A stretch of DNA of 64,000 bases from Candidatus Parcubacteria bacterium (GCA_019347895.1 JAHWKM010000001.1:21924-85923), one strand, 5' to 3'; positions 47,553 through 62,204 are shown, counted from the first letter of the stretch. The notes: generated by a model not told the origin, from the letters alone. Numbers and translations: made by a program.

Positions 47553-47577
47553 AAAGAATCCATAATGCTTATGCTTA

Positions 47578-47640
47578 GTAGCGGGGGCCGGACAGCGGAC
47601 TTCGTCCTTCTTCGCTCCGGCGTGCTCGGAATAAATTCCT
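47578..47640 (-). repeat. Diverged partial copy of the element resembling the tRNA-fMet 3' end. It is the candidate outermost att site of the island.
   Basis: gtagcgggggcCgg... followed by tccttcttcgctccggcgtgctcggaataaa. It is related to 48125..48263 and 52730..52868. Confidence 0.5.
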
Positions 47641-48067
47641 AGCTTCGGGCTTCAGCCCCTGAAATTGTTCCAAATACTTGGTAAGACTCCCCGTTATCGT
47701 TGTTTATGCCTGCAATTATATGTTGCAATTCAACAGCGCTGTCTTCGTAGACGCCTTGCAGCATTAATTCAAAGTATGCTGCTGTATTTCTATTGCCAGC
47801 CGTTTTTTCCTCGGCTTCTCCCATAGCTCTTTTTACCAGATCAGGGTCAAAACCATGGTATATTCTGTCCGAATAATTATAGTGAGTTCCGGGGAGGTCT
47901 TGAATGCCTCTTCTCGGGAGTACTAAACCTTGAGCCAAGAAAATAGTTCTACCGCCAACAGACCTAGTAAATCTTTCGTCGGTAAAGTGGGGGTAGAGCA
48001 TATGCGAAGGAATTTCCTGATCCTTTAAGCGTACTGGTTCAAGCTCACCAAATGCTGTAAATGCCAT
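47639..48067 (-). CDS. Hypothetical protein (142 aa).
   Basis: ORF lying directly downstream, on the minus strand, of repeat copy 48125..48263. Confidence 0.4.
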   Translation of the reverse strand: MAFTAFGELEPVRLKDQEIPSHMLYPHFTDERFTRSVGGRTIFLAQGLVLPRRGIQDLPGTHYNYSDRIYHGFDPDLVKRAMGEAEEKTAGNRNTAAYFELMLQGVYEDSAVELQHIIAGINNDNGESYQVFGTISGAEARS

Positions 48068-48124: not shown

Positions 48125-48263
48125 GTAGCGGGGGCAGGGCATCGCGCGCCTTTGGCGCACTCCTTCTTGCGATGCTCGGCAATAAAATGTAAACACTTTA
48201 TTGTCCTGTGCTTCTCATTCGCCGAACCTCCGGTTCGTGTCCAGCCCCGCTGCTATCGAAGAT
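48125..48263 (-). repeat. 139-bp element, copy 1. Its first 14 nt (gtagcgggggcagg) are identical to the 3' end of tRNA-fMet. It is a candidate attR or integrative-element end.
   Basis: It is near-identical (about 4 mismatches) to 52730..52868. It contains the hairpins GCGCC-AAA-GGCGC and CGAACC-TCC-GGTTCG. Confidence 0.7.
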
Positions 48264-48287
48264 GTGAAATTTCGGTAAAACAAGTTA

Positions 48288-48656
48288 TTAACTTCTGCTT
48301 TGTACATACAGGCTGACGAAAAGTACCAAAATTCCGGAAAGTGCAAATATTCCAGAAGGAATCAACCAAATTAACCCACCCAATCCTTCGTAGAGGAATA
48401 TTGCCCCAAAGCAAAGGGCTGCTAGCAGTAATAAAACTAATGATAGCTTAAACGGTTTGCTCGTCGGCTTGCTAATACCCGGGGTACCATTTTTGAATGT
48501 CGTAATATGGTAGACTGGAATTAATAATATCCCTAATATAATCAAGCTTACACCTGGCCACCGGACCGCTCCTCCTCCGTCATTATCCAACAACACATAT
48601 AAACCCCATCCCGCTACGATCAGTATAGGTGAAAAGATTTTTATTATCATGTCCAC
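48288..48656 (-). CDS. Small 4-TM membrane protein (122 aa).
   Basis: ORF, strongly hydrophobic. It lies inside the AT-rich island. Confidence 0.4.
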   Translation of the reverse strand: MDMIIKIFSPILIVAGWGLYVLLDNDGGGAVRWPGVSLIILGILLIPVYHITTFKNGTPGISKPTSKPFKLSLVLLLLAALCFGAIFLYEGLGGLIWLIPSGIFALSGILVLFVSLYVQSRS

Positions 48657-49002
48657 ACTATAGCAAAAGAGGTCTTAACAACCTCAACTCGGGCAATAAT
48701 TTGCTCCGGGTTTCTGGCTGTCCGAACTACCATCTGGCAGTTCTCCCCTGCGACCTTTCTAGCGTCGCAGATTCGAGCCGTGGCTCCGACAAAGAAAAAA
48801 GCTCTGGAATGGGTCCAAAGCTTTTTTCTTGGTAGACATGACTTTGAAGAGTTGATTCATATTAAAAAAGAACTGTTGTCAATGCGGCAGATAGTGAATG
48901 AAGCACAGAGCTTAACGAAGGTTATAACATGAGCAACAGTACTAGAACCGTGCACTTAAATAAAGTAAGGCTTTACATTAATTACTCTGATAGAATACCT
49001 GT

Positions 49003-49575
49003 ATGAGTAAGTTAGATTTAAACAGTAAAGATATATTATTGTTGCTTATCTACACAAAAATAAACAACGAAGAAAATGGATCAATTTCAGGTAGAACAAG
49101 GATTATGAAGTTATTGTTTTTATTTAAGAAGGAAGTCTTCAAAAAATTTAAAAACGATGGCCAAGATTTAGATAAACTTAAATTCGATGCATGGAATTAC
49201 GGACCATTTTCAAAAGAAATCTATGATGATATAGAATTTCTTTCTAATATTGGTTTTTTAAGTGTAAGAATAAGTGAAGAAGATACGTCAATTGAGGAGG
49301 CAGCTGAATACAATCATTGGGAAGATGGATTTAGTGACTCTAATGATGTAGAAGAATTTACACAAGAGGAATTCTCGCTTACTGATCAAGGTAATAAATA
49401 CGTGGAAATAGAACTATGGAATAAGTTAAGCGAAGCTCAAAAAAGTGTGCTGGGCGAGTTCAAACAAAGCTTCGGAACTGTTCCATTGTATGCACTTCTT
49501 GAATACGTTTATAAAAAGTACCCCAAATACACAACCGAGTCTAAAATTAAAAATAGAGTACTTGGTAGGTCATGA
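49003..49575 (+). CDS. Panacea-domain (DUF4065) protein, SocA/PanA antitoxin-like.
   Basis: ILLLLIYTKINNEENGSISGRTRIMKLLFLFKKEVFKKF...KLKFDAWNYGPFSKEIYDDIEFL fits the DUF4065 core (hydrophobic KLLYL helix ... F.AW.YGP... Y). It is the first gene of a four-gene overlapping operon in an AT-rich island. Confidence 0.6.
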   Translation: MSKLDLNSKDILLLLIYTKINNEENGSISGRTRIMKLLFLFKKEVFKKFKNDGQDLDKLKFDAWNYGPFSKEIYDDIEFLSNIGFLSVRISEEDTSIEEAAEYNHWEDGFSDSNDVEEFTQEEFSLTDQGNKYVEIELWNKLSEAQKSVLGEFKQSFGTVPLYALLEYVYKKYPKYTTESKIKNRVLGRS

Positions 49576-50081
49576 ATCCGACGGCTGGTGAGGTTATAAC
49601 AGGGCTGTGGTGGATTCCCTTTCTTTTTCAAAGCATACCTCTTCTAGCATTTCTTTTTAGCCAGTTTTTAATAAAAGATCAAGATTATAGCGATAAAGTG
49701 GGATTATTTATTAATGCCAATAAAGCAAATCATGCAAAAGCACTAAAACGATTTGTTGTAACTGAAATAGATGGCGATATAGAGGAGAAGTGCCTAGAGT
49801 TTATCAATGAAAGTAGCCGTCGTTTTAAGCTTACGGCCGCGCTAAGCTCCTATGGGAAAATCTACACAAAATTAGCAAGTATATCCTTAAGGCTATTAAT
49901 AGCTTCAAGTGTTATATTCATTGCTGGAGTTGTAGCAGTTCTATTAAACGATAAAGCAGAAATATGGGCATTAAGCGTTAATACTGTTCTAGCAATTTCA
50001 AATATTACGATAATTTATGCTATGAGGCATTATCTCGTAAAGCTTCAGTCCCTGGCGGGTAATGAGGATATCAGTACATGA
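49572..50081 (+). CDS. Membrane protein with N-terminal and C-terminal TM helices flanking a soluble region. It is a candidate toxin or effector partner of the Panacea gene.
   Basis: Its start overlaps the upstream stop (ATGA). The TM helices are GLWWIPFLFQSIPLLAFLFSQFLI and LLIASSVIFIAGVVAVLL...VLAISNITIIYA. No family recognised. Confidence 0.45.
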   Translation: MNPTAGEVITGLWWIPFLFQSIPLLAFLFSQFLIKDQDYSDKVGLFINANKANHAKALKRFVVTEIDGDIEEKCLEFINESSRRFKLTAALSSYGKIYTKLASISLRLLIASSVIFIAGVVAVLLNDKAEIWALSVNTVLAISNITIIYAMRHYLVKLQSLAGNEDIST

Positions 50082-50476
50082 GTGAATATCAACTACAGCA
50101 ATGGTTTGCTGTCTATTTGCAGAGTCAAGGATTTACTGTTTATCAAGAAGTACCTTTTTTATCTCGATCAATTGATATTGTTGCGGAAAAAGATGACGTT
50201 ATTTTAGCCTATGAACTAAAACTTAACGATTGGCGTAAGGCAGTAGCGCAATCAAGCGACCATCTACATGGAGTCGATAGGTCATATGTGTGCATGCCCT
50301 TAAAGTCAAAGATCAATGAAGAATTGATTCACTTAATTCAGGCTAATGGACTTGGGCTTGTTGTTTTTAATATAGAAGCTCAGACTGTCGAGGAAATTAT
50401 TCCTGCCCTTGATTCCGGGTCAGTTTGGCAACCTGCGAGAAAGTGGTTAACTACGGGCATGGAGTTTGCGTTATGA
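50078..50476 (+). CDS. Small PD-(D/E)xK nuclease-fold-like protein (132 aa).
   Basis: It is coupled to the upstream gene by an ATGA overlap. The core ...EVPFLSRSIDIVAEKDDVILAYELKL... carries a D-x(n)-E-x-K arrangement (IDIV ... ELK) typical of restriction-endonuclease-like folds. Confidence 0.4.
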   Translation: MSEYQLQQWFAVYLQSQGFTVYQEVPFLSRSIDIVAEKDDVILAYELKLNDWRKAVAQSSDHLHGVDRSYVCMPLKSKINEELIHLIQANGLGLVVFNIEAQTVEEIIPALDSGSVWQPARKWLTTGMEFAL

Positions 50477-51792
50477 GCGTTACACATTATTTACGATTTG
50501 GAACACACGCTGAGAGCAAGTACTTTCTTGGTAACGGTAAAGACATGTACGATTCGATTATTTTTAATGGTAATATGGTCGCCTATACACAATCAGCAAT
50601 TGCAGCATTCATCATAAATACTCACGAAAAAGGTTTCCTAATTGATCCACAGACACATGCATTTCAGCATGATCTAAGCTACTTAAAAAGTAAAAACTCA
50701 AAAGGCGAAGAGAAGATTAAGCAATCTATTCAGCAATTGGCAGATATGCTGGGGAATCCTGTATTAAGTAAGCTTGAATCGAGCCTCCCAGTAACACCTT
50801 CTGACTTTGGAGAGCAGCCGGTCATCGATGCCTTTGCGGAAAAAGTTATTAAGTTTCAAAGCAACATTATAGATACTGTTAAAGAACAAGATGATTGGAA
50901 GTATCTTAAATTTAAACTTAAGGACCAGAAGTCTTCAGAGCCTGCACCTTCTGGTCTTATAGCACCTTATTTCTATATGAGCGAAGTTTCATACGATAGA
51001 TGGCTAGATATAAATGTAAAGCTTATAAATGCTTCAATCGCTCATAGTGGAGAATCTGAACTCATGGCACAACTTGTCATTGCTAAAGATGTTTTAACTA
51101 GCCCTGAAGATCCTATAAGTAAAATAATCGAAGAGTATGGAAACAGTGAGGCAAAAGCTGTTTTAATATGGGTTGATCAATTTAACACTGTAAATGCTTC
51201 CAAAACGGAATTAGCAGCTTTTAGGAGACTTGCAGAAGGCCTAAAGTCTAAGGGCAAAAGAGTAATCGACTTATATGGCGGTTACTTCTCTGTTCTTTTA
51301 AGTAAGAAAGAAATTCTTGATGGTGTCTGTCATGGACTTGAATATGGTGAATCTAGGGCCGTAAAACCAGTAGGAGGCGGTATACCTATGGCTAAATATT
51401 ATTTCTACCCACTTCATTACAGGATGAGATTCACAGATTTTCTTACGGTTCATAAAGCTATGGGTTGGGGAGTAAGTAAGAAATCATTTAATTCAAAGGT
51501 TTGCTCTTGCGAGAATTGCGAAGATGGAGATATCCAAAAGTTCGGCATAACAACACCAGTTAGAATAAAACGAAAATCGGGAATTGTAACACTAAACTAT
51601 CCTACCCAAGAGACTAAAGACCGTAGTCTTATTCACTATTTGAATTGCAAAAGACGAGAATTCAAAACTGTTCAGTCAAAAAGTATTGACGAGCTAAAGA
51701 AAGAACTAATCGACTCCATCAATACATACGAGAATGTGCTAGGTATAGAGTCAGTTTCCCATCTAAATAGATGGAACGATACTTTGAGCTAA
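50473..51792 (+). CDS. Large protein of unknown family (439 aa from the ATG at 50473) with a C-terminal Cys cluster (CSCENCEDGD).
   Basis: The ATG at 50473 overlaps the upstream stop (ATGA). The ORF track's earlier in-frame start at 50425 would overlap the upstream gene by 52 nt. No recognisable motifs beyond the Cys cluster. Confidence 0.45.
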   Translation: MSVTHYLRFGTHAESKYFLGNGKDMYDSIIFNGNMVAYTQSAIAAFIINTHEKGFLIDPQTHAFQHDLSYLKSKNSKGEEKIKQSIQQLADMLGNPVLSKLESSLPVTPSDFGEQPVIDAFAEKVIKFQSNIIDTVKEQDDWKYLKFKLKDQKSSEPAPSGLIAPYFYMSEVSYDRWLDINVKLINASIAHSGESELMAQLVIAKDVLTSPEDPISKIIEEYGNSEAKAVLIWVDQFNTVNASKTELAAFRRLAEGLKSKGKRVIDLYGGYFSVLLSKKEILDGVCHGLEYGESRAVKPVGGGIPMAKYYFYPLHYRMRFTDFLTVHKAMGWGVSKKSFNSKVCSCENCEDGDIQKFGITTPVRIKRKSGIVTLNYPTQETKDRSLIHYLNCKRREFKTVQSKSIDELKKELIDSINTYENVLGIESVSHLNRWNDTLS

Positions 51793-51819
51793 GATTTAAA
51801 AATCTATTTTGATTACTAA

Positions 51820-52182
51820 CTAGGTTTTCGCTTCGTTTGTTCCTAAGATGATGTATTTTGAAAGTGACCTAATTCCCAAATATAAAAGATACAGAGTAAG
51901 ACCGGACAGTATTATAGTTGCAATTTCTTCCGTCAAGACATCGCTTGAATCACAAATTTGTGTTCCTTGATCAAGATTATATCTAAGCCGCTTTTGTGCC
52001 ATTGAAGTGCCAGTGGTTCGAGCGGGGTCGTTATCCGCATTACATTCACTAATACTTCTAACACTGCTATCCAATATAAATACAAACACTATGATCGCTA
52101 AAAGAATATAAATTACTTTTATAAATCGCCACTTGGCATTTTCTTCTAATTTCTTAGTATGGTTTTTCTTCGGCTTGTTCAT
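51820..52182 (-). CDS. Small 2-TM membrane protein (120 aa) with a Cys-containing loop.
   Basis: ORF with the TM helices VIYILLAIIVFVFIL and IILSGLTLYLLYLGI. It lies in the AT-rich island. Confidence 0.4.
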   Translation of the reverse strand: MNKPKKNHTKKLEENAKWRFIKVIYILLAIIVFVFILDSSVRSISECNADNDPARTTGTSMAQKRLRYNLDQGTQICDSSDVLTEEIATIILSGLTLYLLYLGIRSLSKYIILGTNEAKT

Positions 52183-52224
52183 GTGTTTAGTTGCCTTTTA
52201 AATTTATTAAAAACTGTGACTAAT

Positions 52225-52653
52225 TTATCGTATTTTACGAAGTAAAGAAGCAAAGACATTAGCTGTGCGTTTTCTTTTAACATCATATCCAAAATGCCCA
52301 AGCACCATAGCTGCTGCTGCCTCTTGCTTATCAACAAGTGCTTCTGCTTGTTCTTGTTGAAACGCTGATCCGTGAATTTCGTTGTGTCGCTTGTATATTA
52401 ATCCGTCGCCGACCAATCCCCTTACCAAGGAAGTTGCGAGTTTAGGTCCACCCGAGTTATCAGTTAGGGTAATTGGGCTAGTGATAACCCTTCCTACTGG
52501 TATCATCTCACCAGTCTCTGGCTCATCGTATGCTACTAGAATAGTATCTACTACACCTTCTTGGTGCATTCTTTGCACAGGAGGTATAACAGGGTAGAAT
52601 TTAGCTTCGACCCCAGCAGTGTTTGCTAAGCCTAAAGTATCGGCACCAATCAT
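52225..52653 (-). CDS. Hypothetical protein (142 aa).
   Basis: ORF directly downstream (minus strand) of repeat copy 52730..52868. Confidence 0.4.
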   Translation of the reverse strand: MIGADTLGLANTAGVEAKFYPVIPPVQRMHQEGVVDTILVAYDEPETGEMIPVGRVITSPITLTDNSGGPKLATSLVRGLVGDGLIYKRHNEIHGSAFQQEQAEALVDKQEAAAAMVLGHFGYDVKRKRTANVFASLLRKIR

Positions 52654-52729: not shown

Positions 52730-52868
52730 GTAGCGGGGGCAGGGCATCGCGTGCCTTTGGCGCACTCCTTCTTGCGATGCTCGGCAATAAAATGTAAACA
52801 CTTTATTGTCCTGCGCTTCTCATTCGCCGAACCTCCGGTTCGTGGCCAGCCTCGCTGCTATCGAAGAT
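52730..52868 (-). repeat. 139-bp element, copy 2. Its first 14 nt are identical to the 3' end of tRNA-fMet. It is a candidate proximal att site.
   Basis: It is near-identical to 48125..48263. It lies 205 bp downstream of the tRNA-fMet 3' end on the same strand. Confidence 0.7.
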
Positions 52869-53073
52869 ATGCAATTAAAACAATCGAAAAAATAGATGGG
52901 CAGGAATCCGTCGTCGGCTAAAGCCTCCTTTGGGATATGCCGCTGTCTTTCTCGAAGCAAGCTTCTGCGAGAGCCAGCCTGTTATCGAACCTGTGGTTCG
53001 CTGCGCTCTCGCATCAGGTTCGAGTCTGGCTCCGTACATGAAAAAAGCCCCTAAAATATAGGGACTCTTTTCA

Positions 53074-53148
53074 TGGTAGCGGGGGCAGGACTCGAACCTG
53101 CGACCTTGTGGTTATGAGCCACACGAGCTGCCGCTGCTCCACCCCGCG
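53074..53148 (-). tRNA. Initiator tRNA-fMet (CAU).
   Basis: The reverse complement reads CGCGGGGTGGAGCAGCGGCAGCTCGTGTGGCTCATAACCACAAGGTCGCAGGTTCGAGTCCTGCCCCCGCTACCA. The 5' CGCGGGGUGGAGCAGC is identical to the E. coli tRNAfMet start. Position 1:72 is unpaired (C1-U72), as in initiator tRNAs. The anticodon loop is CTCATAA and the CCA is encoded. Confidence 0.85.
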
Positions 53149-53270
53149 TCGTCGTCACAGCTCAGCAACTTTCTTGCCAAACTAAGACGTGACTTATAGT
53201 TTGGCAGCCATGTTTACTGGCTGCTCCTCTCAATTTTACAAACAGCTGTGCTTGGTTTGCAAAATTGGTT
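53149..53270 (-). promoter_or_regulatory. Promoter plus roughly 75-nt leader of tRNA-fMet. It is copy A of a duplicated module of about 120 bp shared with tRNA-Met.
   Basis: On the minus strand, TTGCAA (53257..53262) is followed 18 nt later by TAAAAT (53233..53238). The leader contains the hairpins CAGCCA-GTAAACA-TGGCTG and CCAAACTATAAG...CTTAGTTTGG. It is about 95% identical to 55347..55466. Confidence 0.6.
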
Positions 53271-55145: not shown

Positions 55146-55269
55146 GTTGAGTAAAATAGTAGTTTGTAATACCTCAACAGCTTTATTTATACTTATTTTT
55201 GAAGCTTTGGCGCTTGGTGCCAGATATATCTAACTTTTCACATAATCTAATGATTAAAATGCTTATGTT

Positions 55270-55346
55270 TGGTAGCAGGGGCGAGATTTGAACTCGCGAC
55301 CTCAGGCTTATGAGTCCTGCGCTCTAACCAACTGAGCTACCCTGCC
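55270..55346 (-). tRNA. Elongator tRNA-Met (CAU).
   Basis: The reverse complement reads GGCAGGGTAGCTCAGTTGGTTAGAGCGCAGGACTCATAAGCCTGAGGTCGCGAGTTCAAATCTCGCCCCTGCTACCA. The D-arm GUAGCUCAGUUGGUUAGAGC is identical to E. coli elongator tRNA-Met. The anticodon loop is CTCATAA. The CCA is encoded. Confidence 0.8.
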
Positions 55347-55466
55347 GTCGTCACAGCTCAGCAACTTTCTTGGCAAACTAAGACGTAACTTATAGTTTGC
55401 CAGCCATGTTTGCTGACTGCTCCTCTCAATTTTACAAACAGCTGTGCTTGGTTTGCAAAATTGGTT
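55347..55466 (-). promoter_or_regulatory. Copy B of the duplicated tRNA promoter-leader module, upstream of tRNA-Met.
   Basis: It is about 95% identical to 53149..53270, including the -35, -10 and leader hairpins. Confidence 0.6.
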
Positions 55467-57684: not shown

Positions 57685-59427
57685 TTAATAATCTTCAAGG
57701 GTTGAGGTATCGCCGATGTCTTGGCCAAGTTCCTTTGATTTTAGGATTCGGCGCATGATTTTACCTGAGCGGGTTTTTGGCAATTTGTCGATGAATTCTA
57801 TTTCACGCGGATAAGCGTGGCCGGCCAAATGCTTTTTAACGTGGGCTTGGATTTTAGTCTTTAATTCCTCTGTCTGTTTGACCCCGGGTTGCGTTACAAC
57901 AAAAGCCTTTATAATTTGGCCGCGGATTTCATCGGGCTTGCCGATAACCCCGGCTTCAATAACGTCCGGATAGGTAACAAGTGCGCTCTCGACCTCAAAA
58001 GGACCGACGCGCTCGCCGGCGGTGTTGATGACGTCATCAGACCTGCCGACAAACCAGAAATAGCCGTCTTTATCTTTTATGCCTCGGTCGCCAGAGATAT
58101 ACCATTCGCCCCTGAAGTATGAATCGAATTTTTCCTGATTGTTCCAGATAGTTTTCATGAGCGACGATACAGTTGAAGCTTTTAAAGCCAGATCGCCTTC
58201 TTCGCCAGCCGGCAGTTCGCGGCCACCGTCATCAATCACCGCGGCATAAACACCGGGCAGGGGCTTACCCATAGACCCGGGCTTGATTTCTATGCCGGGA
58301 TAATTAGTGATGCTGATGGCGCCAAGCTCGGTTTGCCACCAGGTATCATGGAACGGCAGGCCGAAAGCGTCCATGCCCCACCAGATAGCCTCGGGATTAA
58401 GCGGCTCGCCAACGCTTGCCAGATGGCGCAGGGAAGAAAGGTCAAAGTCTTTGGGCTGGGTAGGCGCGCCCATCAGCATGCGAATAGCTGTCGGGGCTGA
58501 GTACCAAACCGTGACCTTGTAATCTTGCAAAACTTTATACCAAGCCTCCGGACTGAACCGGCCGTCAAAAATTACCGATGTGCCGCCAAGCCCCCAAATC
58601 CCCAAAACACCGTAAACCACGCCGGTAACCCAGCCTAAATCAGCCGTACACCAATAAATGTCGTCGTCTTGTATGTCTAGCGAATACTTGGTGCTGACCA
58701 TGGCCTGCAGTACATCCAAGTGGCCATGCACCACGCCCTTGGGCTTGCCGGTCGTGCCGGAGGTGTAGAGCATGTAAGAATAATCGTCCTTGCTCATTTT
58801 TGCTGGTTCAAATTCAGCGCTGGCATTAGCCATTTCTTTATCATATGAAACTATGTGTTCGCCCGCCGGCAATTCAGCAGAACCTCTCTCCACTAAAATT
58901 ACCTTCTGCAGCTTTGGCAAATCTTTTTTGATATTTTCTATCCTCGGGTACAGATCAGCGTTAGTAATAATTACGCTTGCTTGAGAATCCTGCAAACGGT
59001 CAAGCAAAGCCATTTCTTGAAAAGCGGCGAACATAGTTCCGGCAATCCCGCCCATTTTTAAAATGCCGAGGAAGGCTACGTAGCGCTCAGGGATAGAAGG
59101 CAAGAATATAAAAACCCGGTCGCCCTTTTTAACATCTTGACCGGTTAAAACATTGGCAAATTGACTGGTTAATTTTTTCATGTCGGCGAAAGTGTAGTCC
59201 TCTTTAGTGCCGTCATCGCCGTTGTAGATAAGGGCTTTCTTATCCTTTTTATCACCTTCGGCGTGCCGGTCAATGCAGTTATAGGCAATGTTCAATGTAC
59301 CGTCCGGGAAGAAATCGACCAGCTCGCCAGCCGCTTTATCCCACGAAAATTCTTGATAGGCTTGTTGGTAATTGGGTAGATTTGGGGTTTTGCGCGGCTT
59401 GCTTTGAATGATCTTTACGTCGGCCAC
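57685..59427 (-). CDS. acsA: AMP-forming acetyl-CoA synthetase family enzyme (short Acs-like).
   Basis: NIAYNCIDRH is the Acs N-terminal signature. YTSGTTGKPKGV is the AMP-binding P-loop. C-terminal PKTRSGKIMRR. 580 aa. Confidence 0.75.
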   Translation of the reverse strand: MADVKIIQSKPRKTPNLPNYQQAYQEFSWDKAAGELVDFFPDGTLNIAYNCIDRHAEGDKKDKKALIYNGDDGTKEDYTFADMKKLTSQFANVLTGQDVKKGDRVFIFLPSIPERYVAFLGILKMGGIAGTMFAAFQEMALLDRLQDSQASVIITNADLYPRIENIKKDLPKLQKVILVERGSAELPAGEHIVSYDKEMANASAEFEPAKMSKDDYSYMLYTSGTTGKPKGVVHGHLDVLQAMVSTKYSLDIQDDDIYWCTADLGWVTGVVYGVLGIWGLGGTSVIFDGRFSPEAWYKVLQDYKVTVWYSAPTAIRMLMGAPTQPKDFDLSSLRHLASVGEPLNPEAIWWGMDAFGLPFHDTWWQTELGAISITNYPGIEIKPGSMGKPLPGVYAAVIDDGGRELPAGEEGDLALKASTVSSLMKTIWNNQEKFDSYFRGEWYISGDRGIKDKDGYFWFVGRSDDVINTAGERVGPFEVESALVTYPDVIEAGVIGKPDEIRGQIIKAFVVTQPGVKQTEELKTKIQAHVKKHLAGHAYPREIEFIDKLPKTRSGKIMRRILKSKELGQDIGDTSTLEDY

Positions 59428-62204
59428 TAACTTTTTTCTCCTTTGGTCCGGAATTCTTTATCAACATCCATAATACATTGTGTAGTAACCATATGCAGGC
59501 CGTAATCTTCGGCAAATTCTTCCGCCTCGATACTGTTAGCCCCCTCTGCAAGCCAAACTGTTTTAATACCGCCCCGCTCTACAATTTCATCAAGATGTGG
59601 AATAACTTCTTCTGGTTTTCTAAAAATATCAACTATATCAATATGTATGGAATCAGGAACATCGAGGAGCGATTTGTAGGCTTTTTCACCTAAAGTCTCA
59701 GTAATTTTAGGGTTTATAGGTATTATTTTGTAGCCCATTTCTTGGAAATACCTGGCTACTCTATGGCTATGGCGTTCAGGCTTGTCGCTTAAACCGATAA
59801 AAGCGATAGTTCGAGCGTTTTTAAGCAAGTTAATCTGTAAATTATCAGAGGAATAAGTAACCACCGGTTCTTTAGCTGACCATTGCCAATTTTCTATATA
59901 CTCGGGGTCGGCACCGTTTTGAATAATATATTCTCTATGGGCTTCAAGTGCTTTTTTATACTTGGCTTGAAGTTTAGTACACTTGTTTTCGTCCATTACT
60001 TGCTGGGAATAGGCTAGACCTAATATTTCACAAGCCAGGTTATAGCGGTCGGTTTTATTTCTGACCTGCATATCAAAAGGGGTAGTAGTATCACCCTCTT
60101 CAACGTAGCCGTTAATAAAAAAGCGCTTTGGATTTTTGGTGTTAAACAAAATACTTTTCATTGCTTCAGGATAGCCGTGGAAGTTTACAATTACCGGCCG
60201 GTCGACGGTAAAGTATTTTTCGGCATTAGGAATTTGCGGGTGGTACTCGTCGCCACAGCTGCAAGCCGCTTGAAGCCTTAGTATATTAACAAATCGAATC
60301 TTTACATTTGGTGCATCAGCTTTAACCAACTCTATGGCAGCCATGGCCTCCTTAGTAACATAGTCGCCAACTCCAACTACTACTACGTCTGGGTTTTTAT
60401 CGCTAGCAAAATCCCAGACTGAAAGACCATCCTCAAGAGCTTCCTTTGACTGTTTATATGAAAGCCAGCGCGGTTCGGGTGTTTTGCCGGCAGATATTAC
60501 GTTCATGCGGTTTTTTGAGCCAAAAGATTCTTCTAAAATAGCTAGCATGCTATTGTCATCGACTGGAAAGTAGATTTTTATGAAATCGCTATGCTTTTCA
60601 AGCAAACCAGAAATGAAGCCAGGATTTTGATGGCTGTATCCATCGCGCTCCTGACGCCATACAGTCGAAGTCAAAAGATAGTTAAACGAAGGCAAATCTT
60701 GACGCCAGGGCATTTTAATAACCTGTTTGAGGAACTTTTGATAGGTGTGTGCCATACTGCCAAAAATTTGAGCAAAAGCTTCATAGGTTGTAAGCGCTAC
60801 ATGTCTGCCGGTTAAAACATAGCCCTGTGCCAGCCCGTGCATATTATGCTCGGAAAGCATTTCCATTACCTTGCCATCGCGGGTTATGTCTTTGTCATCT
60901 TCATCGTGTGGCCAAACCCAGCCGCGGCCGGTTACATCAAAAACGTTATCTAGCCGGTTGGAATAGGTTTCGTCAGGAGACATTAACCGAAAATTATTCT
61001 TTTCTTTGTTCATTTTGAATATCTCTTTTAGGTAAAACCCTGCCATTCGCATAGCGTTAGACTGGATTTCGCCCGGACTTTCTACAGGTTTCTCCAGTTT
61101 GCTGGCAGCGGGCAAAGATAGCGGCTTAAAGTTTTTTCCAAATACGTGAGGATTATTTCCTATTAAATATTCTTCGTCCGGGATAATATCAAGAATGTCT
61201 TTTGAAAAGCCGTTTTTCTTATCAAACAATTCTTCAAAATGGTAAGACTTAAGCCAGCCTTCTAGGGCTTCGAGTTCTTCGTAATCGCTTCGGACGGTTG
61301 GCATTACAACTTGATGGGCTAGAATAGTGCCTTCGATCTTCTGTCCCCTGAGTTCTTTGATTGTAGTCATTCCTTTGGGGGTACGCATAATAATTACCGG
61401 GTAGCGCGGTTTGAATGGCGGGTTATTACTTCGGGCGTCTTCTTGAATTTGCCGGATTCTTTGATAGGCGGATTCCAGCGTGGCTTGCATTTGCTCGTCC
61501 AGGTTATCTCCTTCAATAAAAAAGGCCTCATAACCATAGCCGCTAAATAAACTTTCTAACTCTTCATTATTCATCCTACCAAAAACAGTCGGGCCGGAAA
61601 TTTTATAACCATTGACATGGATTATAGGCAGCACGACGCCATTAACAGCCGGATCAACTAGCTTATTGATGTGCCAAGCGGCAGCAATGGCTCCTGTTTC
61701 GGCCTCTCCATCCCCGATTAAGCAGGCAGCGATCAAATCCGGATTATCTAAGACAGCACCGTAAGCGGAAGCTAGGGAATAGCCAAGCTCGCCGCCTTCT
61801 AAAATTGCTCCAGGTACTTCGGGGTTACAATGGCTTGAGAAGCCAAGAGGCCAGGTATAATTCTTTGATATATAGGTGATGCCTTCTGAATCTCTAGTCG
61901 CATTATCATAGTATTTTCCCAGGGTACCTTCTATTAAAAGATTTGCTTGAAGGGCGGACTGTCCATGGCCTGGCCCCATGATAAATATGGTTGATTGCCG
62001 GTGTTTCTTAACTAAATAATTGAGGTGAGCATAAACGAAATTAACACCAGGGCAAGTTCCCCAGTGGCCGACCAGTTTTGGCTTCACGTCAGTTGATTTA
62101 AGCGGCCGCTCGAGCAGGAAATTATCCTGCAGGTAAATTTGCGCGACAGACAGGTAATTAGCCGCCCGGACGTACTTTTGAATTTTATCGATGTCTTGTT
62201 GCAA
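59427..62204 (-). CDS. xfp: Xylulose-5-phosphate/fructose-6-phosphate phosphoketolase fused to a C-terminal CoA-binding domain (PF13380-like).
   Basis: The N-terminus LVGHWGTCPGVNF is the XFP_N signature. The TPP-binding GDGE region is present. 925 aa, against about 800 for canonical Xfp. The extra C-terminal 125 aa (IAFIGLSDKPERHSHRVARYFQEMGYKIIPINPK...IDIVDIFRKPEEV...) match the CoA_binding_2 pattern. Confidence 0.8.
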   Translation of the reverse strand: MQQDIDKIQKYVRAANYLSVAQIYLQDNFLLERPLKSTDVKPKLVGHWGTCPGVNFVYAHLNYLVKKHRQSTIFIMGPGHGQSALQANLLIEGTLGKYYDNATRDSEGITYISKNYTWPLGFSSHCNPEVPGAILEGGELGYSLASAYGAVLDNPDLIAACLIGDGEAETGAIAAAWHINKLVDPAVNGVVLPIIHVNGYKISGPTVFGRMNNEELESLFSGYGYEAFFIEGDNLDEQMQATLESAYQRIRQIQEDARSNNPPFKPRYPVIIMRTPKGMTTIKELRGQKIEGTILAHQVVMPTVRSDYEELEALEGWLKSYHFEELFDKKNGFSKDILDIIPDEEYLIGNNPHVFGKNFKPLSLPAASKLEKPVESPGEIQSNAMRMAGFYLKEIFKMNKEKNNFRLMSPDETYSNRLDNVFDVTGRGWVWPHDEDDKDITRDGKVMEMLSEHNMHGLAQGYVLTGRHVALTTYEAFAQIFGSMAHTYQKFLKQVIKMPWRQDLPSFNYLLTSTVWRQERDGYSHQNPGFISGLLEKHSDFIKIYFPVDDNSMLAILEESFGSKNRMNVISAGKTPEPRWLSYKQSKEALEDGLSVWDFASDKNPDVVVVGVGDYVTKEAMAAIELVKADAPNVKIRFVNILRLQAACSCGDEYHPQIPNAEKYFTVDRPVIVNFHGYPEAMKSILFNTKNPKRFFINGYVEEGDTTTPFDMQVRNKTDRYNLACEILGLAYSQQVMDENKCTKLQAKYKKALEAHREYIIQNGADPEYIENWQWSAKEPVVTYSSDNLQINLLKNARTIAFIGLSDKPERHSHRVARYFQEMGYKIIPINPKITETLGEKAYKSLLDVPDSIHIDIVDIFRKPEEVIPHLDEIVERGGIKTVWLAEGANSIEAEEFAEDYGLHMVTTQCIMDVDKEFRTKGEKS

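Follow-up and report, generated by a model that had tools for sequence, protein, structure and literature searches.

A candidate defence operon in a Parcubacteria genome, combining a Panacea protein, a putative PD-(D/E)xK nuclease and a predicted TGT-fold barrel with exchangeable effectors

We analysed a four-gene operon at positions 49003-51792 of a 64,000-nucleotide stretch of DNA from Candidatus Parcubacteria bacterium (GCA_019347895.1, JAHWKM010000001.1:21924-85923), referred to below as the window. A first-pass annotation, made from the sequence by itself, had placed four open reading frames (ORFs) here, chained by ATGA overlaps, and sequence inspection confirmed them: start and stop codons overlap at 49572, 50078 and 50473, with the junctions tcATGAat, acATGAgt and ttATGAgc. 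The operon is 2.8 kb long, and its genes, here called g1 to g4, lie in a tract of low GC content.

49003..49575, + strand: g1, 190 amino acids (aa), Panacea (DUF4065/SocA-like) protein with a predicted winged-helix fold; core gene, always adjoining g3, or g2 and then g3
49572..50081, + strand: g2, 169 aa, membrane protein with one transmembrane (TM) segment at the N-terminus, a helical region in the middle and two TM segments at the C-terminus; variable part, accessory or effector
50078..50476, + strand: g3, 132 aa, small putative PD-(D/E)xK (Hjc/YraN-like) nuclease-fold protein; core gene
50473..51792, + strand: g4, 439 aa, predicted TIM barrel of the tRNA-guanine transglycosylase (TGT)/DpdA fold with a CxCxxC...H zinc motif; core gene
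~48850..52250, no strand: low-GC tract (GC 0.27-0.40 in the composition profile) containing the operon; approximate limits of the foreign segment

An alternative TTG start at 50425 would extend g4 to 455 aa. The GC content of 49003-51792 is 0.362, against 0.448 for the remainder of the window, and the four-gene segment is compositionally foreign. A scan of the locus for promoters and terminators gave counts at or below shuffled expectation. The genes are genuine and not chance ORFs: homologues of every one are numerous and have residues that never vary, and dozens of unrelated genomes repeat the gene string, bacteria of the candidate phyla radiation (CPR) among them, a conservation that the first-pass annotation had proposed as a check.

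Conserved core and exchangeable partners

A search with g4 of a set of 5.8 billion proteins returned 399 matches, all labelled 'hypothetical', and a search of one genome per species returned 96 loci, 80 of which were kept. Iterated hidden Markov models for g1 to g4 were run over all ORFs of 87 loci and the window, 88 sources altogether. We found g1, g3 and g4 together in 85 of these, the three exceptions being cut by contig ends. The genes occur in the orders g1-g2-g3-g4, g1-g3-g4-SIR2 and g4-SIR2-g1-g3, and on two viral contigs g4 and SIR2 run convergently towards g3 and g1 (g4->SIR2-> facing <-g3<-g1). From these orders the system resolves into two rearrangeable sub-modules, g1(+g2)->g3 and g4(+SIR2). 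Neighbour-joining trees of g4, g1 and g3 have matching clades, as under co-evolution.

The partner of this core varies. In 43 of the 80 genome loci g1 and g3 have a membrane-protein gene between them (34 recognisable g2 homologues and nine divergent ORFs of the same size, topology and place), and in another 31, which have no membrane-protein gene, a SIR2-like gene follows g4 directly. The SIR2-like proteins form a single family of 345-460 aa, with Pfam SIR2_2 matches above the gathering score, matches to PADLOC SIR2 models, and NWD and HG motifs. No locus of the 80 carries both, so that membrane protein and SIR2 are mutually exclusive, and the core plus one or the other makes four genes in 74 loci. 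Of the remaining six, three are cut by a contig end, two (L075 and L077) end within ~800 nucleotides (nt) after g4, and in one (L064) g4 is disrupted. Haloarchaeal loci consist of the three-gene core with no effector. Along the leaf order of the g4, g1 and g3 trees the effector class switches only three to five times. SIR2 and small TM proteins are recurrent effectors of abortive infection.

This is modular effector exchange around a conserved core, of the kind by which defence systems are recognised, and g2 is its dispensable, replaceable part. By Kyte-Doolittle hydropathy g2 is hydrophobic in one segment near the N-terminus (~11-34) and in a longer block towards the C-terminus (~99-131), in agreement with the one N-terminal and two C-terminal TM helices first assigned to it. 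The pairing implied by that assignment, of a Panacea antitoxin with a membrane toxin of the PanT type, did not hold up: g2 does not belong to the conserved unit, being missing from the 31 SIR2 loci and from haloarchaea, and it is g1, g3 and g4 that stay constant.

The spread of the system is patchy, covering more than 15 phyla and Archaea, from CPR bacteria to haloarchaeal replicons. Very distant triads, at 20-23% identity in g4, come from Haloarcula marismortui, Arthrobacter, Halopiger and Halogranum.

Haloarcula marismortui plasmid pNG400: SocA-like protein, 164-aa protein and 418-aa protein
Arthrobacter plasmid pSI-1: four genes, including a TM protein
Halopiger and Halogranum chromosomes: proteins of 168, 131 and ~425 aa, no effector

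In both haloarchaeal chromosomal loci a gene for a DUF8102 protein (212-218 aa) lies convergent to the g4 homologue and directly after it (L094, 6171-6809, - strand; L095, 6178-6834, - strand), possibly as a lineage-specific fourth component.

The closest relative of the operon is a Saccharimonadales copy with 73% identity in g4. DNA similarity to it spans exactly 49001-51764 with nothing outside, and the four genes were therefore transferred as a unit. Two homologous loci belong to cultured strains.

Pseudomonas cuatrocienegasensis CIP 109853: NZ_FOFP01000018.1, ~9.7-12.6 kb
Moorella mulderi DSM 14980: NZ_LTBC01000003.1, ~321.6-325.1 kb

Two candidate settings were rejected. A phage-borne system is ruled out by the counts of 0 in 50,697 phage genomes and 3 in 2.9 million viral contigs. 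One contig labelled Escherichia coli (L044, CAVGNR010000002.1) carries a SIR2-class copy that groups with Clostridia homologues; none of 5,426 complete E. coli genomes carries the system, and the contig is probably mis-binned.

The core proteins

The first-pass annotation had read a DUF4065/Panacea signature in g1, and g1 indeed scores above Pfam's own threshold for the domain: SocA_Panacea (PF13274) matches at E=1.2e-7 with 33.1 bits against a gathering score of 25.7, over profile positions 1-109 of 113. The NCBI entry identical to g1 is named 'DUF4065 domain-containing protein', and 22 of 55 members of the g1 subfamily match Pfam Panacea at E<=0.01. The predicted structure is a winged-helix fold whose nearest match is the toxin-binding C-terminal domain of DarG (PDB 7yk3), at 14% sequence identity; in DarG this domain binds and silences the cognate toxin. 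PADLOC gave partial matches of g1 to PDC-M19A, a type I S-subunit model and DarG, and the g1 alignment profile had 0 matches among PDB sequences. Several loci have a second Panacea-type gene within a few kb of the system (L003, 2993-3787, a 264-aa HTH-Panacea protein; L015, 2835-3419; L055, 13144-13743), which suggests that Panacea modules cluster within the same islands.

Neither g2 nor g3 nor g4 gave a match above threshold in Pfam, NCBIfam, PHROGs or PADLOC, and no family was found for g2. For g3, the motif 'IDIV...ELK' had prompted its assignment as a minimal PD-(D/E)xK nuclease, and D33, E46 and K48 of this motif proved invariant in 50 homologues, as did E3 and Q58, with D67 conserved in at least 90%. 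The resulting E...D...ExK has the order and spacing of the PD-(D/E)xK catalytic motif. Members of the g3 family have weak, scattered matches to families of this type (MmcB-like 6, UPF0102 3, Hjc 3, PDDEXK_9 3, MTES_1575 2, and also PDDEXK_4); all library matches are sub-threshold, and nearly all the stronger ones fall within the PD-(D/E)xK superfamily. The NCBIfam YraN model matches g3 at E=8e-4, and hhalign places its D...ExK on the motif of E. coli YraN (E=0.018, with a non-significant probability). Among PDB sequences the best match of the g3 alignment profile was AF1548 at E=0.15, with nothing better. By its motif, g3 fits the PD-(D/E)xK nuclease superfamily.

The product of g4, first described as a protein with a Cys cluster and no recognisable family, was modelled with high confidence as a TIM barrel, and its closest structural matches (scores at the line ends) point to a (beta/alpha)8 barrel of the TGT type.

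bacterial tRNA-guanine transglycosylase, 3unt: 20.1
DpdA, DNA preQ0 insertase, 7ui4: 19.0
QTRT2, 6fv5: 17.9
archaeosine TGT (ArcTGT), 1iq8: 15.6
Cap10 of type IV CBASS (cyclic oligonucleotide-based antiphage signalling system), 9ntn: 14.8
generic glycosidase-type barrels, various: 14.6 or less

The Cys cluster itself was read correctly. Across 55 sequences C344, C349 and H388 never vary and C346 is kept in at least 90%, giving C344-x-C346-xx-C349 plus H388, the CxCxxC...H pattern of the TGT zinc site; hhalign sets CSCENC of g4 on CDCYTC of E. coli TGT. A distant homologue on Arthrobacter plasmid pSI-1 (L090, 4986-6215) has lost CxCxxC but retains YGGYF, the GGxP...RYY block and the other operon genes, so the zinc site is dispensable within the family.

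Enzymes of the TGT fold work by flipping a base out of a nucleic acid, which is then exchanged by way of a covalent ribosyl-enzyme intermediate. Their nucleophile is an Asp (D264 in E. coli, D280 in Z. mobilis, D279 in QTRT1, D248 in Cap10), and an Asp/Ser recognises the base. In the g4 model, conserved residues gather where the barrel strands end on the C-terminal side (H5, N32/N34, D58-P59, Y166/F167, W233/D235, G269/S273 and H287/E290/E293/R295), and since this is the usual place of a TIM-barrel active site we infer that g4 is probably an active enzyme. In a weak hhalign alignment of the g4 profile with E. coli TGT (E=0.037, probability 1.4%), the Asp of the TGT motif 'GID' is faced by the invariant P305 of 'GGIP' in g4. 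By strand order the beta8 motif 'GVxHGLE' could be equivalent to the TGT nucleophile site, with H287, E290 and E293 as the corresponding residues, and D58 in 'DPQTHAFQ' of g4 resembles 'DSGGFQ' of TGT.

At the sequence level the relationship disappears. Pfam TGT did not match g4 at E<=1 or any of 55 family members at E<=0.05, and among PDB sequences the g4 family profile had no match at E<=10. Run against 1.84 billion proteins, the profile gave 1054 g4 clusters at 50% identity, nearly all stand-alone proteins of ~440 aa, with no fusions among the 150 best matches listed; we read this as the profile not reaching the far larger canonical TGT family. No TGT gene was found in the retrieved loci, and we took a match of g4 to S6PP_C for noise, its 19.6 bits being well below the cut-off of 34.4. 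The predicted structure accordingly places g4 in the TGT superfamily at the level of the fold, together with its zinc motif, and not at the level of sequence.

Genomic surroundings

The Saccharimonadales copy has a serine recombinase on one side and a CBASS operon (SMODS, HORMA, AAA, CARF) on the other. Other loci adjoin an OLD/Gabija-like ATPase-TOPRIM gene or HNH_2 and AbiJ genes, and haloarchaeal loci have SRA-HNH, GIY-YIG and integrase genes nearby. In a census of 126 ORFs directly flanking ~75 loci, the commonest families were Resolvase (7), Recombinase (5), Phage_integrase (3), HNH_2 (3) and MADS mad3 (3), followed by GajA (2), PDC-S01 (2), type I S subunit (2), ResIII (2), DUF6079 (1) and RE_TdeIII (1). 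The system therefore combines patchy horizontal spread with co-location beside mobile and defence genes, as defence systems do. None of the outcomes that the first-pass annotation had named as refuting its proposal came about: the DUF4065 match is significant, none of the four proteins matches a housekeeping family, and loci lie beside recombinases and known defence genes.

In the window itself the neighbours are ordinary: a Crp-type regulator, a histidine kinase, an RRM protein, a GNAT protein, a methyltransferase, an acyl-CoA synthetase and a phosphoketolase. The last (59427-62204, - strand) has 925 aa, with XFP_N, XFP and XFP_C domains and a C-terminal CoA_binding_2 domain. Closer to the operon are the following features.

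48288..48656, - strand: small multi-TM ORF upstream of the operon, host-like GC
51820..52182, - strand: small multi-TM membrane ORF (hydropathy), 120 aa, convergent with the operon and inside the low-GC tract
48125..48271, - strand: repeat copy A, 147 nt, tRNA-Met-derived, structured, 96% identical to 52730-52876
52730..52876, - strand: repeat copy B, ~200 nt from tRNA-Met 53074-53148
~47578-47660: degenerate third repeat copy

The two small membrane ORFs had been noted as flanking the module. They match nothing in the family libraries and are missing beside the module in the closest relative, and the GC content of the upstream ORF is like that of the host; as they are not conserved with the module, we reject them as parts of the system.

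The 147-nt direct repeat keeps the 5' leader, the acceptor and the 3' end (CCTGCCCCCGCTAC) of tRNA-Met 53074-53148, while its interior is replaced by ~100 nt that fold into three hairpins closed by an acceptor-like stem (-55.1 kcal/mol, z=-3.9), and it received no Rfam or ARAGORN call. On the minus strand, an unrelated 142-aa ORF closely follows each full copy (47639-48067 and 52225-52653). Serial insertions targeted to tRNA genes could have left these repeats behind, or they could be a repeat or RNA family derived from a tRNA, and they possibly mark an island boundary or an old attachment-site remnant. The operon lies between the two full copies with tRNA-Met 1.3 kb downstream; of the tRNA-associated island first suggested, the tRNA gene and the bracketing tRNA-Met-derived repeats are thus present, and there is no integrase nearby. 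A further 121-nt repeat (96%) occurs at 53150-53270 and 55346-55466, directly upstream of tRNA-Met genes 53074-53148 and 55270-55346, and a 25-nt match (47564-47588 versus 55258-55282) links the 3' end and flank of the second tRNA-Met to a site at 47564. Together these possibly outline a tRNA-bounded segment of 7.7 kb that contains the operon.

Interpretation and relation to known systems

Judged by its gene content, the locus is a modular conflict operon of defence or toxin-antitoxin (TA) type, assembled from known domain types, and not a classical two-gene PanA-PanT pair. We propose that it is a member of a mobile conflict or defence operon family with a g1-g3-g4 core and a swappable effector, a reading to which we give a probability of about 0.6. 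The most likely function of such a family would be anti-phage defence of the abortive-infection type.

How the parts might work together is more doubtful, and we offer the following order of events as a speculative one. The four proteins would be made from one transcript by translationally coupled synthesis. By analogy with the way Panacea and DarG C-terminal domains treat toxins, g1 would bind g3, and g2 where present, and hold both inactive. Panacea domains bind and silence cognate toxins (Kurata et al., PMC8832971), and Ernits et al. propose Panacea as a trigger sensor (PMC10440598); g1 itself may be the trigger-sensing part. The g4 protein would flip out a base in an infection-specific or altered nucleic acid and excise, exchange or recognise it. 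On the trigger, g3 would cut DNA and g2 would damage the membrane, with SIR2 depleting NAD+ instead in the sister systems, and the infected cell would be stopped. Because haloarchaeal systems consist of the core only, we suggest g3 as the basal effector, with g2 and SIR2 as later or optional additions.

A bolder version, which we hold tentatively and at odds clearly below even, is that these operons form a new prokaryotic immune family reaching from CPR bacteria to haloarchaea. Here a TGT-fold base-flipping enzyme would act as infection sensor or signal generator, and a Panacea/DarG-C-like adaptor would release a resolvase-like nuclease together with a membrane-disrupting protein or a SIR2 NADase. 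Many phages use 7-deazaguanines to escape restriction. As a sensor, g4 might recognise or excise modified guanines such as these, or it might carry out base exchange on a nucleic acid or a nucleotide.

Several points weigh against the proposal of a mobile conflict or defence family. Its support comes from genomic anatomy and distribution, and the system is known from genes alone. The interactions of g1 with g3 and of g4 with SIR2 are read from adjacency only. The enzymatic activity of g4 is not assured, because the catalytic Asp of TGT was not mapped in it and one homologue is without the zinc motif. The system is nearly absent from phage and plasmid sets (0 of 50,697 phages, 2 plasmids, 3 of 2.9 million viral contigs), and in the window the operon has ordinary flanking genes with no integrase near. 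The neighbour census, which had no matched random control and was judged against a general expectation of a few percent defence genes, is supportive and not quantitative.

The locus might instead be an extended PanA-PanT addiction module that stabilises mobile DNA, with g1 as antitoxin, g3 and/or g2 as toxin and g4 as an accessory modifier. Such a module would agree with g1 scoring above the Panacea threshold and being most like the DarT-binding domain of DarG, with the antitoxin-first order and overlapping genes typical of TA loci, with g1 and g3 being adjacent or split only by g2, and with the presence of the system on plasmids. Membrane PanT toxins also exist, and some PanAT loci have accessory third genes (PMC8832971), in small fractions of genomes only, whereas g4 is universal here. 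PanA is moreover defined by promiscuous change of partner, whereas this g1 subfamily comes with g3 and g4 as fixed partners in 85 of the 88 sources, and the swap of SIR2 for a TM protein beside a conserved enzyme is characteristic of defence systems. On balance we regard such an addiction module as unlikely; TA and defence roles are not mutually exclusive and can coexist.

Rather less probable is restriction-modification of the Dpd type, in which g4 would insert a modified base such as a 7-deazaguanine as a self mark, g3 would restrict unmarked DNA and g1 would serve as winged-helix controller. The predicted fold of g4 and the nuclease motif of g3 are consistent with it, but a non-exhaustive census of adjacent genes showed no DpdB or DpdC homologue and no queC, queD or queE. 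The hosts include CPR bacteria of minimal metabolism, TM and SIR2 effectors are unexpected in a modification-restriction logic, and g4 has no sequence-level relation to TGT or DpdA, the nucleophile Asp not being at the aligned position in what is a weak alignment. A housekeeping operon of the ordinary kind, such as a tRNA-modification enzyme and its partners near tRNA genes, would account for the tRNA-modifying enzyme fold predicted for g4 and for the nearby tRNA-Met genes, but we consider it very improbable: the family is rare and patchy (1054 clusters in 1.84 billion proteins), its GC content is foreign and its flanks are not syntenic between relatives, and it lies beside recombinases and defence genes, paired with a nuclease and SIR2 or a TM protein.

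If the proposal of a core with a swappable effector in an immune role is true, a Panacea domain would serve a fixed multi-gene machine as its regulatory or adaptor subunit, the first defined multi-component role of the domain, which bears on what Panacea senses, a question raised in PMC10440598. It would also be a third and mechanistically distinct immune recruitment of the TGT/queuosine-pathway fold, after Dpd and type IV CBASS, and the occurrence of the fold without a QueC-like partner or Dpd apparatus would point to different chemistry or a pure recognition role. With 2.8 kb it would be a compact immune system in CPR bacteria (Patescibacteria), whose immune repertoire is poorly known. The idea is directly testable in the homologues from the two cultured strains and from Haloarcula marismortui pNG400.

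The operon appears to be undescribed, as first claimed, and we hold this provisionally. It is not represented in PADLOC v2, Pfam or NCBIfam. Against PADLOC v2.0, g2, g3 and g4 had no match at E<=1, nor had their Moorella and Pseudomonas homologues, and no single system covers the operon. No paper in the searchable literature, which leaves most subscription journals outside its scope, combines Panacea, the TGT fold, PD-(D/E)xK and SIR2 or TM proteins. The TGT-containing 'BRC' systems were considered as a prior description and set aside, being HerA/PglZ-based and a different system (PMC12839542). PDC-M19 of PADLOC comes closest by profile, with g1 and its homologues matching PDC-M19A partially at E=1e-11 to 6e-9, but only ~80 of 294 profile positions are covered and g2 to g4 are unmatched, so that as far as visible it is not the same system.

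PanA-PanT (Kurata et al. 2022, PMC8832971; Ernits et al. 2023, PMC10440598) is similar in having the Panacea gene first, tight overlaps and, possibly, membrane or nuclease toxins. It differs in that the conserved unit here is three genes (g1, g3, g4) with a swapped fourth, and in that the partners of g1 are fixed and not promiscuous; the operon does not have the two- to three-gene architecture of PanAT, three genes being found only in the haloarchaeal versions. A TGT-fold partner is not reported in the searched text of the two papers, and according to the first of them the published PanAT screen left out operons conserved beyond three genes (PMC8832971). Unlike DarTG, g1 is without a macrodomain and the operon is without a DarT-like ADP-ribosyltransferase.

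Of the systems with a TGT-fold protein, Dpd (DpdA, PMC10164549) differs by its DpdB and DpdC and its large helicase/nuclease restriction set, none of which is present here; DpdA and g4 are not similar in sequence, and conservation of the catalytic residues could not be demonstrated. Cap10 of type IV CBASS is an example of a TGT fold re-tooled for immunity, there by deazaguanylation with the catalytic pair D248/H226 (bioRxiv 10.1101/2025.04.06.647259). The present operon has no Cap9/QueC-like partner and no CD-NTase, and the D248/H226 pair could not be mapped on g4. From Thoeris, CBASS, Pycsar, SIR2-HerA and defence-associated sirtuin (DSR) systems the operon differs in its unrelated core proteins: it has no TIR, cyclase, HerA or Argonaute, and no component so far implies a signalling molecule. 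What it shares with all of them is the arrangement of interchangeable SIR2 or transmembrane effectors beside a conserved core.

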